Translations under genes and position numbers: made by a program
Shown here: positions 2,533 to 20,260 of the stretch, in pieces
Position numbering within the stretch: the stretch's first letter is position 1
How the letters are laid out: each line of letters opens with the position of its first letter
The notes under the pieces: generated by a model
Told to the model about the DNA's origin: nothing
Seen by the model: the letters and a program-made list of their open reading frames with translations, nothing else
The model's database searches: none
Origin: a virus
Lineage: Duplodnaviria > Heunggongvirae > Uroviricota > Caudoviricetes
Direction: 5' to 3' (one strand)
IMG/VR virus record: IMGVR_UViG_2563366944_000002
Span: 1-20,260 of that record
Length of the DNA: 20,260 nucleotides

Positions 2533-3213
2533 TTACCCCTGCCGCCCGATAACCACGACCTTTCCGCCCCCGCCTTCATCACGGGTGCTGATGTCCTGGG
2601 ATATACGGCGGGAGCCAACCAGCATTTCCCCGTAAGGCACCGGCATCGGGTTCCCCTGGGCAATCATGTTATCCAGTGAGGAAAAGTACGTGTTCTGTCT
2701 GCCGTTATCCGTTGCGCGGTAATCCGGTGTTTTTGCCTTCGGGGCCAGCATCTGGGCCACTCCGCCCAGTATCATGCTGGCACCCAGTGAAAACAGCATC
2801 GTGGTGGCAGAAAAACCACCGGCACTCAGGGCTGTACCCCATAACGCCATCGAGCCTCCGGCCGTGAAGAAAGAGCCCACGATGGCTGCCGCCCCCAGCA
2901 CAATCTGCAGTCCACCCTTTCCGGCCCCGGCCAGTCGCGGCACAATGTGGATGACCGTTCCCTCACCCAGCTGTTCGTGAAGACGGGCGTACACCGCCTC
3001 CGGTGCCGTGTCATCACCGGCAATACGTATCTGGTACCAGCCTTCGTTCATCTGACGGCGAAAGCCCGGCATCTGCATCGACAGGGCGCGAATGGCTTCC
3101 GCTGCCGTGTTCACATACAGGCTGAGGCGGCGGCCAAATCGTTGCAAATCCCCGTGAAGGCAGATGCGTGCCAGTGGCGGTGACGCCAGACAGAATGCGT
3201 TCGTCGTTGCCAT
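2533..3213 (-). CDS. I: Tail assembly protein I
   Basis: 226-aa ORF MATTNAFCLASPPLARICLHGDLQRFGRR... collinear with lambda gpI (remembered MAATHTLPLASPGMARICLYGDLQRFGRR...); position between K and J. Confidence 0.9.
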   Translation of the reverse strand: MATTNAFCLASPPLARICLHGDLQRFGRRLSLYVNTAAEAIRALSMQMPGFRRQMNEGWYQIRIAGDDTAPEAVYARLHEQLGEGTVIHIVPRLAGAGKGGLQIVLGAAAIVGSFFTAGGSMALWGTALSAGGFSATTMLFSLGASMILGGVAQMLAPKAKTPDYRATDNGRQNTYFSSLDNMIAQGNPMPVPYGEMLVGSRRISQDISTRDEGGGGKVVVIGRQG

Positions 3214-14616: not shown

Positions 14617-16712
14617 GGATTATCTTCCGCACGCTCCGTCCGCAGTTTTTTCTTCCGGCGACGGCGTTTTTCTGCCCCGGCCGTCAGTTCCGGGGATACC
14701 GTTTCACCAGAACGCTCCTGCGGGAAGACGAGCCACGTTTCCCGCTGTGCCCAGTCCGGTGCGGAGGGCCAGCGGATCTTTTCGTAACCATGCAGAACGG
14801 CAAGCGCATCCGCATAAACCAGCAGGTCAAACGCCTCGTTAGCTCCCCTGCCCGGTTTTCGCCATTTTCCGTCACTGCCGCGCTCTTCATAGGTCAGCTC
14901 ATCGTAAAACCATCGCCCCAGCCAGTCGGGAAAGTGGATATAGTTCGGCCCTGGTGTGTCACGCCACAGGGCATTATTTACACGGTCCTTAAACGCATCC
15001 GTCTGAACCAGCCACAGCGCGACATCGCCACTGGCTCTGGCACGGCGGGCACTTCTGCCGGTATTATCCGGGAAGGTACGGTTAATCAGCCTGTCACGGC
15101 GAAGTCCATCCCCCTTGAACAGAAACACCCTGTTGCCCAGTCCGTCACTCCGGCAACGACGCCAGAAACGATAGGCGTTATCTGTCACCCCGGCTTCCCC
15201 TCCCGTATCCACCGCCATGGCCATCAGACGCATGCGCACATCCGGATCAGAAGCCAGCGGCCATGTTTTATGGAACACATCCGTCAGCAACAAATCCCAG
15301 TCCTCCGGATATGCCGCCGGATCAACCGGCAGACTTTCACCGTTGGGACTGCAGCGCAGTGAATGCCGGATGTTATAGCGATCAACAATCCAGCGTTCCC
15401 CCTGCTCTCCGTATCCGGTGATCTGCACAACAAAACGGCGATTTTTACCGCCCTGTACGTCAACCGTTGCCTCAATAAAACGCACACCATCCGGCACAGA
15501 TCGCCGGGGAAACGGCTCGGCACGCTGTTCAAGCAGTTCACTTTTACGCTGTTCCGTGGCTGAACGGGGCAGATAGGGGCGTCCGATATCGGTGTTCACC
15601 ACCGCTTTCAGGGTCTCTTCACTGCCGGTTCGCTCATACTCTTCTTCTGCCGCCAGCAGTTTAAAAATCAGTTGTTCCCAGGTCTGAAACGCCGCAGCCG
15701 GCCCCTCCATCCAGAATGACGCAATCCGGGAATTTCGTGGCGTTCCGGTGATACTGCCGTCCGCCACCGCCCGTTCACCTTCACGAAGCCAGATCCCTTT
15801 GTTATTCAGTTCGCGTTTCTGCTCAGGGGCAATCAGCCCGCGACAATGCGGACACATCAGACGGGCAGCCTGACCGGCAGCCACAAAATCCGGGTTATTC
15901 CGGTATCCGGTCATGTTATCCATCACCGGCTGAAAATATTCCCCGCAGTGCGGACACGGCCAGTACCACCGGCGGCGGTCTCCCCGGTTATACAGTGACA
16001 GGATCCCCGTTGTTGGCGGTGCCTCATGTGCGCCGCCACAGCGCCATTTGGTGTCAGTGATATCCCGCCCCGGCGAACTCTCGACCAGGGTCATCCCCGA
16101 GGACATAAAGGTGGTGGTACGCTTTGATGCCAGGGTGAAGGCATCCCCTTCCCCGTCCACGTTTTCAGGGAAACGGTCATAATCCGTCAGCGCCACACGA
16201 CGGTAATCCGAAGAAGAAAATACAGTGATCGACGGCCAGCCAATCTTCAGGAAGGAGCCGTCAAGAAACATTTTATCGTGGACGTTGTTGTCATTACGGG
16301 AAGGACTGAGACGCTTACTGACCTCCGGGCTGTGACGAAACGTTCTGGAAAGACGCGTTCTGGAGTGTTCCCGCGCCTTCGTCTCGGTCATTTGCACCAC
16401 CAGCATATCCGCCGGATCACAGATGATGCCGTACACAATCCAGCCGTCAATCAGCCCTTCGGTTTTCCCGGTTCGCGCAGGTCCCACAAACACCACCGCG
16501 TCATATTCACGGGCTGATAATGTATTAATAGGGTCAATCATATAGGGCGTCAGCGATGACTCCCACGGACCGGAAGTATTGGCTCCCCGTGGTACCCGCA
16601 TATAACGCCTGATGGCTTCCGCTACTGGTAACCGGCTGGGCGGGCGAAACAGCGAGGCCACTTCGCGCCAGATATCGGATGCGCGGCTATGGCTCTCGTT
16701 CACCTGATTCAC
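14589..16712 (-). CDS. A: Terminase large subunit (gpA family)
   Basis: 707-aa ORF with a Walker-A-like VFVGPARTGKT and overall gpA-like architecture; start overlaps the small-subunit stop (ATGA). Confidence 0.9.
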   Translation of the reverse strand: MNQVNESHSRASDIWREVASLFRPPSRLPVAEAIRRYMRVPRGANTSGPWESSLTPYMIDPINTLSAREYDAVVFVGPARTGKTEGLIDGWIVYGIICDPADMLVVQMTETKAREHSRTRLSRTFRHSPEVSKRLSPSRNDNNVHDKMFLDGSFLKIGWPSITVFSSSDYRRVALTDYDRFPENVDGEGDAFTLASKRTTTFMSSGMTLVESSPGRDITDTKWRCGGAHEAPPTTGILSLYNRGDRRRWYWPCPHCGEYFQPVMDNMTGYRNNPDFVAAGQAARLMCPHCRGLIAPEQKRELNNKGIWLREGERAVADGSITGTPRNSRIASFWMEGPAAAFQTWEQLIFKLLAAEEEYERTGSEETLKAVVNTDIGRPYLPRSATEQRKSELLEQRAEPFPRRSVPDGVRFIEATVDVQGGKNRRFVVQITGYGEQGERWIVDRYNIRHSLRCSPNGESLPVDPAAYPEDWDLLLTDVFHKTWPLASDPDVRMRLMAMAVDTGGEAGVTDNAYRFWRRCRSDGLGNRVFLFKGDGLRRDRLINRTFPDNTGRSARRARASGDVALWLVQTDAFKDRVNNALWRDTPGPNYIHFPDWLGRWFYDELTYEERGSDGKWRKPGRGANEAFDLLVYADALAVLHGYEKIRWPSAPDWAQRETWLVFPQERSGETVSPELTAGAEKRRRRKKKLRTERAEDNPWITSGGWL

Positions 16713-17185
16713 ATATCGGCCTCATCACAACAGTCAATGACTGCCTTTTCCAGTGTGTCGCGGATCTCATCAACCACAATCTGTACTTCATTCAGTTGTG
16801 ATGCGGTCCACCCTCTGTCCCTTTCCAGCCGGTCAGGCCAGGTTTCCAGTACCTGAACTATCGCTTTCACCACGACAGAAAAGGACCGCCTGACATCACT
16901 GACAGGCACAAGCTGAACAGTTTCATGCTGAAATTTAAGACGCTCGCGCTCGGACTGATACCATGCCTTCCGATCATGTGGGTTCATCTCTTCATCTTCG
17001 GAAGTCGGTGGTTTTTCCAGCAACGAAATAATCAAATCCGTCAGGAGATACAGTTTTTTCTTTTCATTACTGCCTGGTGCAAGAGGAACATCCGCCATTC
17101 TGGCGGCAACAGTCTGCCGGTGCAGACCTGAAAGGGCTGCCAGTTGATTAATATTTAACTTCATATTTTTCAGCTCGCCGTCCAT
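16709..17185 (-). CDS. Nu1: Terminase small subunit (Nu1-like, N-terminal HTH)
   Basis: 158-aa ORF with an N-terminal helix-turn-helix (LNINQLAALSGLHRQTVAARMADVPL) and acidic C-terminus, ~200 bp downstream of the putative cosN as in lambda. Confidence 0.75.
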   Translation of the reverse strand: MDGELKNMKLNINQLAALSGLHRQTVAARMADVPLAPGSNEKKKLYLLTDLIISLLEKPPTSEDEEMNPHDRKAWYQSERERLKFQHETVQLVPVSDVRRSFSVVVKAIVQVLETWPDRLERDRGWTASQLNEVQIVVDEIRDTLEKAVIDCCDEADM

Positions 17186-17430
17186 TTACATCCCTCCACA
17201 TAAACCGCTGAACAAAAGTGGCTCTTTTTTTGTAAAGAAATGCCGCCATATAAAGATGTCGAACAAAAATCAACCGCAATCATCATCTTTTTAATGCTAA
17301 ACACATTAAAAACAATAAGTTACCATTATGATGATGATGACGATAAAATCACAAAAATGCGCCTTTTTCCGCGCCGCCCGCCCCGTGTACAGCCCCACCC
17401 CACCGGGAGGACCCGTCAGCCAGACATAAA
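17186..17430 (-). other. cos region: candidate cosN (~17369-17388) plus an AT-rich cosB-like segment with inverted ATC/GAT triplet repeats
   Basis: The minus strand reads ACGGGGCGGGCGGCGCGGAAAAAGGCGCATTTTTGTG, similar to the lambda cos junction (ACGGGGCGGCGACCTCGCGGGTTTTCGC). AATCATCATC (17278-17287) and GATGATGATGA (17330-17340) form an inverted repeat around AT-rich DNA. Confidence 0.45.
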
Positions 17431-17453
17431 AAAACCGCCATGATGAGGCGGTT
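17426..17453 (-). terminator. Rho-independent terminator ending the lysis-proximal transcript before cos
   Basis: On the minus strand: stem AACCGCC / GGCGGTT with a 7-nt loop, followed by a U7 tract (plus-strand A run 17428-17434); 20 bp downstream of the 70-aa ORF stop. Confidence 0.5.
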
Positions 17454-17473
17454 TAATAATCACAGGTATCAGG

Positions 17474-17686
17474 TTACTGCTCACTCCATACAAAATCATC
17501 GCTTCCCTTTCGATAAGAGCCGTAATGCACTTCATATCCATCGCCAACCATTTTTGCTTTTGTCTCGGCAACCTCTTTTGTTGCATAGACGCCTACAAGA
17601 TGCCATGGCGATCCTTTAACAACAGCCCATCCTTTAACCCAACCTTTGTTGATTGGATCTGGCTCTAATCCTTCCGCAATAAACAT
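17474..17686 (-). CDS. Hypothetical small protein (70 aa), cargo gene between Rz and cos
   Basis: Strong RBS (AGGAG, 6-nt spacer) before the ATG at 17686; AT-rich relative to structural genes; hydrophilic, Trp/Gly-rich. Not recognised. Confidence 0.6.
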   Translation of the reverse strand: MFIAEGLEPDPINKGWVKGWAVVKGSPWHLVGVYATKEVAETKAKMVGDGYEVHYGSYRKGSDDFVWSEQ

Positions 17687-17727
17687 AATTATCTCCTTTT
17701 TGGGTACCCGGAGACATTCTATGTCAT

Positions 17728-17952
17728 TCAGGAAACAGGCAACAATGTCGCTGATACAATCCCCGCCATATTTGCATTCAGATCACATTCAACAGAGATT
17801 TCTTCATCCGTGGCATCCACTTCATATGTTCGTGAATAACATTCCGTGCATTTACCACTGAATGTGCCTTCAGCCAGAACACGCCCACGCTGTAAAACCC
17901 GGAACGGAATTGTTCCGTTAAAGGGCTTTACGGTTACCAGTAATTTCTTCAT
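17728..17952 (-). CDS. Hypothetical small protein (74 aa), cargo gene between Rz and cos
   Basis: RBS GGAGG before the ATG at 17952, 23 bp after the Rz stop. No signal peptide, so not Bor-like. Not recognised. Confidence 0.6.
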   Translation of the reverse strand: MKKLLVTVKPFNGTIPFRVLQRGRVLAEGTFSGKCTECYSRTYEVDATDEEISVECDLNANMAGIVSATLLPVS

Positions 17953-17975
17953 ACATCCTCCGGATAATAAAAAGA

Positions 17976-18440
17976 CTACTTAATGCACTGGGTGCGGATA
18001 TATTCCTGCAATCCCCGAATCATTCTGTCGCTGGTTGCGATTCGCTCTCTGAGGGTGAAATAATCCCGTTGAGCGGCGTCAGTAAGTCCGGGGCGGGCTG
18101 CATCATCCACGCCGGTGGTGCCGGTGGCTTCACGCACGGCTGGACAGACTGCTCTGATGCGCAACCGACGACGACCAGCGGCAATATCATCACGCAGAGC
18201 ATCATTTTCAGCTTTCGCATCAGCTAACTCCCTTGAGTATTTTTCATCGAGTGCAGCAACATCACGCTGGCGCTGCTGCATATCAGTAATGGTTGCATTT
18301 GCCTGCTCCAGCTCACTGACTTTTTTATCGCGCTGCTCTTTGTAGGTTATGGCGTTATCACGGTAATGATTCAGCCCCAGACTAAGCGCACCACAGGCCA
18401 CCAGCAGGGCAATGATGACCACGCACAGTACGCGGTTCAT
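17976..18440 (-). CDS. Rz: Spanin inner-membrane subunit Rz (i-spanin)
   Basis: 154-aa ORF with an N-terminal TM segment then NHYRDNAITYKEQRDKK...AKAENDALRDDIAAGRRRLRI, closely matching lambda Rz as remembered. Confidence 0.92.
   Translation of the reverse strand: MNRVLCVVIIALLVACGALSLGLNHYRDNAITYKEQRDKKVSELEQANATITDMQQRQRDVAALDEKYSRELADAKAENDALRDDIAAGRRRLRIRAVCPAVREATGTTGVDDAARPGLTDAAQRDYFTLRERIATSDRMIRGLQEYIRTQCIK
18020..18220 (-). CDS. Rz1: Spanin outer-membrane lipoprotein Rz1 (o-spanin), embedded in the +1 frame of Rz
   Basis: MRKLKMMLCVMILPLVVVGCAS... with a lipobox (VVGC) and proline-rich CVKPPAPPAWMMQPAPDLLTPLNGIISPSE, the same pattern as lambda Rz1. Confidence 0.85.
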   Translation of the reverse strand: MRKLKMMLCVMILPLVVVGCASEQSVQPCVKPPAPPAWMMQPAPDLLTPLNGIISPSESESQPATE

Positions 18441-18441
18441 T

Positions 18442-18579
18442 TCACCACCAGCGTATCTGACCGATGAAATAACCGGAGGCCATAATCACAAACACCAGCC
18501 AGATAAGAATGAACTTCCAGGTGGATAATTTTTCAGCCATCACTCGAATCTCCCGAATCAGTTTGCTAAAATCAAACAC
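18442..18579 (-). CDS. Candidate 45-codon single-pass membrane protein between endolysin and Rz (GTG start; alternative ATG at 18540 gives 32 aa)
   Basis: Not in the track (below 60 aa). AAGGAG sits upstream of a GTG at 18579 with a short spacer. Hand translation: MFDFSKLIREIRVMAEKLSTWKFILIWLVFVIMASGYFIGQIRWW; the stop is 1 nt from the Rz start. One hydrophobic helix. Prediction only. Confidence 0.3.
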   Translation of the reverse strand: MFDFSKLIREIRVMAEKLSTWKFILIWLVFVIMASGYFIGQIRWW

Positions 18580-18615
18580 ACTTTCTCCTTTGACTTTTCC
18601 AGAGTCAGGAAACAC

Positions 18616-18649
18616 AAAACCCCGCTTGCAGCCAACAAACGGGGTTTTT
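18616..18649. terminator. Hairpin with T/A tracts on both sides (bidirectional terminator-like) in the endolysin-Rz gap
   Basis: CCCCGCTTG / CAAACGGGG stem (one mismatch) with a 7-nt loop, followed by TTTTT on the plus strand and preceded by AAAA (a U tract on the minus strand). Confidence 0.4.
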
Positions 18650-18738
18650 ACTTTTATTCACTTAGGTTTTGCCAGTTCTCAGGATTTCGTGTTATCCGTC
18701 CGCATTAGCCAACGTCATTTTTCAACAAAATATTCTGC

Positions 18739-19272
18739 TTATTTGTCAATTCCCCAGCACGCCAGCGCGCTCTCCTGGTCACGCCGTGAGACCTGTCCAT
18801 AGCAGTTATTTGAACGAATACGGCAGTCTCTGCCACCGTCCTTAATCCACCAGCGAATCGCCTCACATGCTCCCCTGCGATCGCCTGCATTAATTCGTTT
18901 ATAAAACGTCGACGGGAAACACTTACCGGGGCCAATGTTATACGGGCAGAATGACGCAATACCCGCTTTCTGTGGTTCAGTCAGTGGCACTTTGATGTTT
19001 TTCGCCACCCATGCCAGCGCCTTATCACGCTCAATGGCGTTAACCTGGTCGCATTTTTCCTTCGACAACTTCATGCCGGGGAGGACAGGCTTACCATCCA
19101 CCCGGGTGGCTCCACGGCAGATGGTCCAGATACCCGCGCCATCACGGTATGCCGTGGTGTGGTTACCTTCCTTTTCATCCAGAAACTGGTCGAGAATGTC
19201 AGGCGCAGGCGCACCAGCGGCAATCAGCGCCAGAACGGCAGCCGACAGGCCGTATTTGATTTTTGCGTTCAT
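18739..19272 (-). CDS. R: Endolysin, lysozyme-like with N-terminal signal-anchor-release (SAR) domain
   Basis: 177-aa ORF with an N-terminal weakly hydrophobic Gly/Ala-rich segment (GLSAAVLALIAAGAPA) followed by a catalytic E-x8-D-x5-T pattern (EKEGNHTTAYRDGAGIWT), as in P21-type SAR endolysins. Weak RBS. Confidence 0.9.
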   Translation of the reverse strand: MNAKIKYGLSAAVLALIAAGAPAPDILDQFLDEKEGNHTTAYRDGAGIWTICRGATRVDGKPVLPGMKLSKEKCDQVNAIERDKALAWVAKNIKVPLTEPQKAGIASFCPYNIGPGKCFPSTFYKRINAGDRRGACEAIRWWIKDGGRDCRIRSNNCYGQVSRRDQESALACWGIDK

Positions 19273-19400
19273 GGATATTTATCAGGATTTATCGGTTCCG
19301 AATCCCTGGATATGTTAAATCTTCAGCCCGCCAGCGGTAGGACACTGGCGTTTTTCCTGATGGCTGAAATATATCTGACAATTTCAGTAGAGGATTAACC

Positions 19401-19715
19401 ATGCATAACGATCAACATAATTATGATTTATGCCTGCAAGCCATAAATGAGCGGGTAAAATCAGAGTGCCTCTTACTCCTCCCACAAGAACACGATGCAG
19501 TAAAATCCATTCAGGCTGAGCCGTATGGACATCTCACACCTGTGACTCTCGGCATTATCGCCAGAGCATTAACACAGCCCATGCTTATGCGTATTAAGAC
19601 CAATATAAATAACTGGTTGAATGAAGAATTAAGCTACCTTGATTGTGAGTGGGACAATCATTACGCAAAAACACAAAAAGAACGCATCTTCAGTCGATTA
19701 TCCAGCAACAGATAA
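19401..19715 (+). CDS. Hypothetical protein (104 aa) on the opposite strand to the late operon, AT-rich cargo gene
   Basis: GAGG RBS 8 nt before the ATG at 19401; region is clearly more AT-rich than the structural genes; convergent with the 177-aa ORF (9 bp between stops). No recognisable motif. Confidence 0.55.
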   Translation: MHNDQHNYDLCLQAINERVKSECLLLLPQEHDAVKSIQAEPYGHLTPVTLGIIARALTQPMLMRIKTNINNWLNEELSYLDCEWDNHYAKTQKERIFSRLSSNR

Positions 19716-19724
19716 CGAGCCACC

Positions 19725-20258
19725 TTATATACGCCCTTTCAGATAAGTCATCCCCGGCTGCATCCAGTCAACAGGTGCTTTCTTAAAGGGCGTATTATCA
19801 AAATCACGCAGAAGAGCCTCCAGCACAACTGCATCATTGTCAGCACCACTGGCCATCATTTCAATCTCAGCTGCTACCTGCAGATATCCCATGCAACGAC
19901 CAATGCGCTTCATCAGCCCCTGCTTTTTATTGTTCTTCAGGTAATCAATGGCAAATTCAATGAGCGCCTCACTATGCTGGTGCGATGGCGGTGTTAATTT
20001 CCCATTTTCTGAGATGGTTATTTTCCCGCCATCTCCGTATACAACAAAGGATGGCCGGTTACACTCCCATTCCTGATCTTTATCAGGTGCAGACGCAATA
20101 AAATAACGTTTATTTCCTTCCTCTCCGGCACTTTTAACCGTAATGGAGTACTCAGACTGCAGACAAGACGCCTCTTTTTCTGACCGCAGTGTTGACGGCG
20201 GCATCTTCAGAGAACCAGTAATTCTTCCCGGTAGCTTTCCTTTGTAGGTTATCAACAC
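19725..20258 (-). CDS. Hypothetical protein (at least 177 aa; the start lies within 3 nt of the window edge, so it may be N-terminally truncated)
   Basis: Long ORF in AT-rich DNA upstream of the endolysin on the late-operon strand; hydrophilic, no TM segments, so not a holin. Not recognised. Confidence 0.5.
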   Translation of the reverse strand: MLITYKGKLPGRITGSLKMPPSTLRSEKEASCLQSEYSITVKSAGEEGNKRYFIASAPDKDQEWECNRPSFVVYGDGGKITISENGKLTPPSHQHSEALIEFAIDYLKNNKKQGLMKRIGRCMGYLQVAAEIEMMASGADNDAVVLEALLRDFDNTPFKKAPVDWMQPGMTYLKGRI

Positions 20259-20260
20259 AT

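Follow-up and report, generated by a model that had tools for sequence, protein, structure and literature searches.

A mobile AT-rich cassette between the holin and endolysin genes of a lambdoid Escherichia coli prophage extends a YdfR-family gene and carries the antisense gene orf6

What two convergent genes of deviant base composition do in the late region of a lambdoid prophage is the question raised by positions 19273-20258 of the DNA analyzed here, a stretch of 20,260 nucleotides (nt) corresponding to positions 1 to 20,260 of the IMG/VR virus record IMGVR_UViG_2563366944_000002 (hereafter the window). The window is a lambdoid Escherichia coli prophage with every late gene on the minus strand. 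The pair consists of orf6 on the plus strand and ORF5 on the minus strand; both open reading frames (ORFs) were found where the original prediction, made from the letters of this DNA, had placed them, with their stop codons 9 nt apart (ORF list and sequence). They belong to a horizontally mobile cassette that adds a linker and a conserved C-terminal domain to a YdfR-family late protein and brings orf6 along with it. Positions 16000-20260 were 100% identical to the chromosome of E. coli MSB1_4I, and the region 19273-20258 was 100% identical to the Shiga toxin 2 (Stx2)-converting phage 86, where the genes are named orf5 and orf6.

The position of the pair was established from the gene order of the complete relatives. 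On the late strand, the genes follow one another as S, ORF5, antisense orf6, R and Rz/Rz1, which places the pair inside a phage-21-type lysis cassette, with the holin gene S past the window edge on one side and the gene for the signal-anchor-release (SAR) endolysin R on the other. The order S-ORF5-[orf6]-R was read in three loci (L001, L006 and L042; the L numbers denote the loci compared), and the corresponding order in K-12 is essQ-ydfR-rrrQ. Upstream of ORF5, S encodes a class II holin of 71 amino acids (aa) (L006, 13537-13752); ORF5 begins 4 nt past the S stop codon and has the same orientation as S and R. The N-terminus of R is a SAR-like hydrophobic segment that precedes a Phage_lysozyme domain. 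The pair had been expected upstream of the lysis genes, close to Q and the late promoter, in the slot that can hold stx. Instead, it lies between S and R, and in phage 86 the stx2AB genes occupy the Q-to-S cargo slot, ~2.5 kb further upstream than the cassette. Of the two genes, only orf6 is antisense cargo; ORF5 is co-oriented with the late operon.

ORF5 is cut by the window edge, as had been suspected. Its full length is 268 aa in MSB1_4I (100% identical) and in phage 86, and the GTG "start" at position 20258 is Val91 of the complete protein. The head of ORF5 (residues 1-100) matched Pfam DUF1327 (PF07041) with 152.5 bits and an E-value of 3.7e-45, against a gathering score of 25 bits; only residues 91-100 of this match lie inside the window. 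Residues 1-74 share 45% identity with K-12 YdfR. The head is followed by a linker and by the C-terminal domain, here called Ccore, which is part of PHROG 1085 and contains two near-invariant motifs in the alignments, RxGRxMGxLQ and DFxxPPFKxxPxxWxxPG. The ratio of nonsynonymous to synonymous substitution rates (dN/dS) of Ccore was 0.15-0.38, and its frame was open in all diverged copies checked. Ccore had no Pfam or PDB match. In the AlphaFold model of ORF5, the C-terminal 195 residues had a predicted local distance difference test score (pLDDT) below 50, so that no fold was read from this part and the head alone was interpreted. No transmembrane segment or signal sequence was found in ORF5 (maximum 19-residue hydropathy, 1.31). 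The claim of two unknown genes thus holds to the extent that neither belongs to a characterized family, whereas the minus-strand ORF is an in-frame extension of a YdfR/DUF1327 protein.

In RefSeq, the PGAP annotation labels the long YdfR-family gene as a pseudogene ("incomplete; missing C-terminus") in MSB1_4I, O104:H4 and KY1497. The long frames of 268 and 296 aa are intact despite this label, which looks like an annotation artefact arising from comparison with short YdfR proteins. Because long YdfR-family genes are marked as pseudogenes, most of the listed E. coli genomes that carry Ccore leave this DNA without annotation.

The plus-strand gene orf6 encodes a 12.2 kDa protein that matched PHROG 1853, a family of unknown function (8.4e-50), and has its own ribosome-binding site, as originally noted (Table 1). 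Its frame was open in all copies at 68-78% protein identity, and dN/dS in pairwise comparison with the window copy was 0.22-0.44. Each of the other five frames contains 4-10 stop codons. AlphaFold modelled the protein as a five-helix bundle (pLDDT 88.8; predicted template modelling score 0.82), for which no informative structural neighbour was found. No transmembrane segment or signal sequence was detected (maximum 19-residue hydropathy, 1.16), and the product is predicted to be a soluble cytoplasmic helical protein. Because the frame is intact in diverged copies, dN/dS is low and the model is confident, orf6 is confirmed as a real gene under purifying selection, more than a chance ORF. Neither ORF is degenerate in relatives.

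The cassette boundaries were set by blastn comparison of locus L007 (O157:H7 F8798), which has a short ydfR, with L006, which is identical to the window. The short ydfR of L007 encodes 114 aa and ends 50 nt before R. The cassette extends this ydfR in frame and brings orf6 together with 62 nt of its upstream sequence; the microhomology CGG(T/C) is present at both junctions. The cassette could have been inserted into a short ydfR. It could equally have been deleted from a long one, because the short ydfR ORF stops three codons beyond the junction. The block of orf6, linker and Ccore was essentially 100% identical across 25 fetched loci (24 IMG/VR contigs and L001), whereas the adjoining genes in the same loci varied: DUF1327 head, 53-100%; holin, 77-100%; R, 92-100%; Rz, 53-100%. 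The block also occurs in a non-Stx prophage of the O104:H4 outbreak lineage. A mosaic boundary is located at the R start codon (19270-19273), with phage 86 being 100% identical to its right and ~92% identical within R. The guanine-plus-cytosine (GC) content of the region 19273-20258 was 44.4% (orf6, 41.0%), compared with 55.0% for the window, 54.5% for R and 56.6% for the structural genes. Because the DNA is present or absent between collinear prophages and 100% identical in differing phage backgrounds, the data support a horizontally mobile AT-rich accessory island, in agreement with the proposal of horizontally acquired cargo.

The slot taken by orf6 varies among other relatives: nothing occupies it in L004 and L053, and other genes fill it in L005 and L046. 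In L005, a different 95-aa antisense ORF (2625-2912, plus strand) is located in the orf6 slot; residues 3-61 of this ORF gave a weak partial match in PADLOC to PDC-S51, a candidate defence protein (E=2.5e-5).

Among 5426 complete E. coli genomes, Ccore was present in 777 (~14%) and orf6 in 95 (~2%). In all 95 genomes having it, orf6 is contiguous with Ccore; conversely, just 95 of the 777 Ccore genomes have orf6, and 88% lack it. Only four phage records, representing three phages, contain orf6. An exhaustive orf6 profile search returned 21 relatives, mostly proteins or fragments of ~50-145 aa (full-length, ~105-120 aa); the exceptions include three giant proteins, each matched over several short stretches. 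Among the GTDB species representatives, Ccore was found in three Escherichia/Shigella genomes only and orf6 was not found. All E. coli copies of the cassette are downstream of S, inside the lysis cassette. Orf6-like genes with 47% identity also stand alone between S and R (L038-L041).

The protein database added Salmonella enterica to this range. The ORF5-like proteins of Salmonella prophages have 245-277 aa, with a Ccore ~42% identical to the window copy, and their genes lie between Q, with its cargo (HicAB or a pertussis-like toxin), and the holin gene. A convergent orf6 homologue (40-48% identity) directly follows the ORF5-like gene in three lineages (L037, L049/L050 and L051/L052). In Salmonella L046, an unrelated 97-aa antisense gene takes the orf6 position, and L053-L055 have none. 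In the E. coli and Salmonella relatives, a lysis cassette is always alongside, and R is an N-terminally hydrophobic SAR-type lysozyme wherever it was read; some Salmonella loci gave no Phage_lysozyme match. Two of these relatives carry pertussis/ArtA-like ADP-ribosyltransferase toxin genes in the Q-to-holin slot (L039, 4880-5671 and 5690-6022, minus strand; L046, 1210-2019) in addition to their orf6-like or ORF5-like genes; the toxin gene of L039 is adjacent to one for a small putative B subunit.

The DNA upstream of orf6 was compared between E. coli and Salmonella. The Shine-Dalgarno sequence is kept in the copies of both, as is a TAnnnT hexamer at the -10 position, where Salmonella has TTGCCG-18-TAGTCT. 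A hairpin that spans the left cassette junction (Table 1) shows a single compensatory change, C-G to T-A, in L051, and only the E. coli copies have a T run after it. The hairpin is kept between E. coli and Salmonella though the adjacent proteins are only 40-48% identical, and its wobble and mismatch patterns are compatible with either strand being functional. Folding of 19300-19420 gave z=-1.97, mildly more stable than shuffled sequence, and Rfam contained nothing relevant for 17000-20260. From these sequence features, the TAnnnT region may be a weak orf6 promoter, with the hairpin close to where the transcript begins. Between S and R, a consensus scan found no terminator able to halt late transcription.

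Coordinates of the features are collected in Table 1.

Table 1. Features of the cassette and of its surroundings, with positions in the window unless a locus is named
Feature	Position	Strand	Description
Rz/Rz1	17976-18440 and 18020-18220	-	ORF list
57-aa ORF	18442-18615	-	ORF list
R	18739-19272	-	177-aa SAR-type lysozyme; Pfam Phage_lysozyme, 7.8e-25
R leader	19273-19338	-	common to >2000 E. coli genomes (blastn)
Putative weak sigma-70 promoter of orf6	19288-19316	+	-35 TTATCG 19289-19294, -10 TATGTT 19311-19316; overlaps the R leader of the opposite strand
7-bp hairpin GCCAG(Y)G-loop-CACTGGC	19330-19349	+	upstream of orf6; spans left cassette junction; E. coli/Salmonella alignment
Cassette	19339-20195		~857 bp, 44.1% GC; missing from short S-ydfR-R prophages
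orf6 Shine-Dalgarno sequence GAGGA	19390-19394	+	6 nt before ATG
orf6	19401-19715	+	104 aa, 12.2 kDa; antisense to late operon; ORF list
Stop-codon spacer	19716-19724		9 nt between convergent stops; too short for a terminator
ORF5, in-window part	19725-20258+	-	C-terminal 177 residues; runs past window edge
Ccore, C-terminal domain of ORF5	19725-20066	-	~113 aa plus stop codon; part of PHROG 1085
ORF5 linker (residues 91-154) with last DUF1327-head residues	20067-20260	-	L001 and L006 translations
Pseudogene-labelled YdfR-family genes	L006 13197-13532 (~window 20196 and past edge); L042 6924-7259; L004 3055-3390		RefSeq/PGAP

The R leader matches found by blastn cover query positions 1-44, 1-66 or 1-78, and YdfR is annotated under the 1-66 matches; the distal ~13 nt of the leader correspond to the 3'-terminal part of short ydfR. 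Downstream of R, the window and phage 86 are unrelated, with a small transmembrane ORF in the former and ant in the latter. This ORF of the R-Rz slot (18442-18615, 57 aa at most) has one transmembrane helix, matches PHROG 6632 over residues 13-57 and is unannotated in the MSB1_4I record; it could encode a small lysis-accessory membrane protein. A hairpin with a 14-base-pair (bp) stem and flanking A and T runs (18616-18648) lies just downstream of R and precedes the ORF. A second AT-rich gap (17186-17975, 43% GC), located between Rz and the DUF1441/terminase genes, is probably a further site for cargo; the two small ORFs that it contains on the minus strand (17474-17686 and 17728-17952) are annotated as hypothetical proteins. 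The genome identical to the window also has a hokD type I toxin gene (L006, 19414-19569) and an IS2 element (20979-22207), both in the early-right region of this prophage.

Database searches yielded little on function. Across Pfam, NCBIfam, PHROGs and PADLOC, the only matches were DUF1327 for the ORF5 head and the two PHROGs of unknown function. Neither ORF fell into a structural or lysis family, the lysis families being sought in Pfam and PHROGs. The original prediction had suggested a defence, anti-defence or host-modulating function; PADLOC run on the locus proteins gave no defence match for either ORF. No defence or toxin model of PADLOC-DB (version 2023, with newer systems outside its coverage), Pfam or NCBIfam matched ORF5 or orf6, and the homologues P0152 and P0069 reached only chance level (E ~0.01-0.02). 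PDB sequence searches, run with single sequences as well as a profile built from 22 sequences, gave nothing below E=0.03; weak PDB matches to coiled coils and influenza HA2 were attributed to composition and set aside. In the literature, no paper mentioning these accessions was found, DUF1327 appeared in one comparative-genomics paper only, and nothing specific was found on cargo hotspots in lysis cassettes. HepS of Gifsy-1 was considered and is unrelated.

The closest known protein is YdfR of the K-12 Qin prophage, which resembles ORF5 in its N-terminal domain and in its slot between a class II holin (essQ/S) and a lysozyme (rrrQ/R). YdfR is 103 aa long, overlaps rrrQ and is accompanied by no cargo, whereas ORF5 has 268 aa with a linker and a ~113-aa domain; the added part that sets ORF5 apart is the part inside the window. 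In two-hybrid and co-purification experiments, residues 1-72 of YdfR interacted with RNase G and with the N-terminal half of RNase E, and YdfR co-purifies with RNA and brings down DNase-resistant nucleic acid (PMC13232886).

For orf6, the nearest likeness is to lambdoid morons. The bor gene of lambda and 933W, a moron located downstream of Rz, encodes an outer-membrane lipoprotein with a known phenotype in the lysogen, where it is expressed; bor is also annotated in phage 86. Like bor, orf6 is small, opposite to the late operon, deviant in composition, and present or absent among related phages. In contrast to this lipoprotein, the orf6 product is a predicted cytoplasmic helical protein encoded between S and R, and its promoter is only putative. 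The stx slot likewise holds accessory DNA in the lambdoid late region, and phage 86 has both stx2AB and the cassette; this slot lies between Q/pR' and the holin gene, whereas the cassette lies downstream of S in E. coli; among the relatives of the pair, only those of Salmonella sit between Q and the holin gene. Another non-lysis insertion in the same lysis cassette is ant, which lies between R and Rz in phage 86 and also in 933W-type phages and shows that cargo is tolerated there. It differs from the present genes in its slot, which is occupied by the small transmembrane ORF in the window, in its orientation, which is that of the operon, and in its family, which is that of anti-repressors. Mu gp25 releasin is likewise encoded by an accessory gene close to a SAR endolysin; it is membrane-tethered (DUF2730) and required for endolysin release (PMC9239132). 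In contrast, the ORF5 and orf6 products appear soluble and lack DUF2730, and their genes are dispensable in most related prophages.

We tentatively favour the interpretation that the pair is a mobile moron-type cassette of two independent, differently expressed genes, with orf6 in a conflict role. ORF5 would be a late gene, expressed with S and R on the Q-modified late transcript, and its head is likely to act as K-12 YdfR does, which binds the N-terminal half of RNase E. The cassette would provide this head with a linker and a conserved, soluble ~113-aa domain that may serve as a protein-binding or effector add-on. orf6 would be a separate unit with its own ribosome-binding site and probably its own weak promoter; by analogy with lambda bor, it may be made from the repressed prophage, and convergent late transcription would turn it off on induction. 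Its protein most likely binds another protein and may act in phage-phage or phage-host conflict, for example in exclusion, anti-defence or host modulation. We infer both the biochemical roles and the timing of expression. A number of observations weigh against this interpretation. The consensus scan detected no promoter for orf6 and no terminator following it, and the proposed promoter sequence in the R leader is also present in prophages without orf6. No Pfam, NCBIfam, PDB, BFVD or PADLOC match points to a conflict function. The link of ORF5 to RNase E is transferred from a homologue with 45% identity, and overproduction of K-12 YdfR altered few transcripts (PMC13232886). The binding role of Ccore is a guess, the model of this domain being of low confidence. 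Finally, the strict nesting of orf6 with Ccore (95/95) and the pairing in Salmonella could mean that the two genes are not independent.

This last point leads to a rather doubtful alternative, in which the genes form one two-component module and the orf6 product is a cognate partner of Ccore, acting on it as an antidote, inhibitor or regulator. In such a module, orf6 could neutralize ORF5 arising from leaky late transcription or from superinfecting lambdoid phages. It would account for the invariable contiguity of orf6 with Ccore in complete E. coli genomes, for the convergent pair in three diverged Salmonella lineages despite the differing holin position, and for the movement of orf6, linker and Ccore as one identical block; the convergent, nearly abutting layout would also allow late transcription to silence the partner. 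However, most Ccore genomes lack orf6, which argues that Ccore proteins work without it and are presumably non-toxic. Moreover, orf6-like genes stand alone between S and R in L038-L041, in L005 and L046 the place of orf6 is taken by small antisense genes unrelated to it, and no toxin-antitoxin or defence model was matched. Co-occurrence is explained by linkage by descent, because a 9-nt spacer hardly lets recombination split the genes. It also seems improbable that orf6 and Ccore are an undescribed phage-conflict module in which orf6 of the lysogen binds the Ccore of late proteins of its own or of a superinfecting phage and blocks an RNase E-directed late function until, on induction, convergent late transcription shuts off orf6; if true, exclusion of superinfecting phages or self-control would be tied to interference with the RNA degradosome of the host. 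A lysis accessory or regulatory role in timing or SAR-endolysin release, comparable to antiholins, P2 LysA/LysB or Mu gp25, is quite improbable. The slot between a pinholin and a SAR endolysin and the constant company of a lysis cassette would fit such a role, as would the link of ydfR to envelope integrity by a genetic screen in K-12, as cited in PMC13232886. Unlike holins, antiholins, spanins and releasin, neither protein has a transmembrane or signal sequence, and orf6 is antisense to the lysis operon; the cassette is dispensable for lysis because it is missing from most prophages that share this S and R. Decaying, non-functional DNA with orf6 as a chance ORF would suit the PGAP pseudogene label and the AT-rich composition, and is very unlikely. 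We rejected it, since the 268- and 296-aa frames are intact and dN/dS is 0.15-0.44 across copies diverging by up to ~32% in protein sequence, whereas the other frames of orf6 are stop-ridden, its model is confident and the Salmonella homologues are conserved.

Both ORFs entered the databases as hypothetical proteins with the phage 86 record, and a moron cassette in the lambdoid late region is a familiar arrangement. Added here are the placement between S and R, the in-frame extension of ydfR combined with an antisense gene, the boundaries and mobility of the cassette, the nesting of orf6 with Ccore reaching into Salmonella and the mislabelling in RefSeq. The cassette shows that the phage-21-type S-R junction is a cargo hotspot, and it resides in medically relevant prophages, namely the Stx2 phage 86 and the prophage of the O104:H4 outbreak lineage. 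The systematic pseudogene labels on long YdfR-family genes in RefSeq render Ccore invisible in many annotations. If the functions of the cassette genes were solved, roles would be gained for two orphan families, Ccore and orf6, which are confined to prophages of Escherichia, Shigella and Salmonella, and also for the widespread, unstudied YdfR/DUF1327 late proteins, which may link lambdoid late expression to RNase E.
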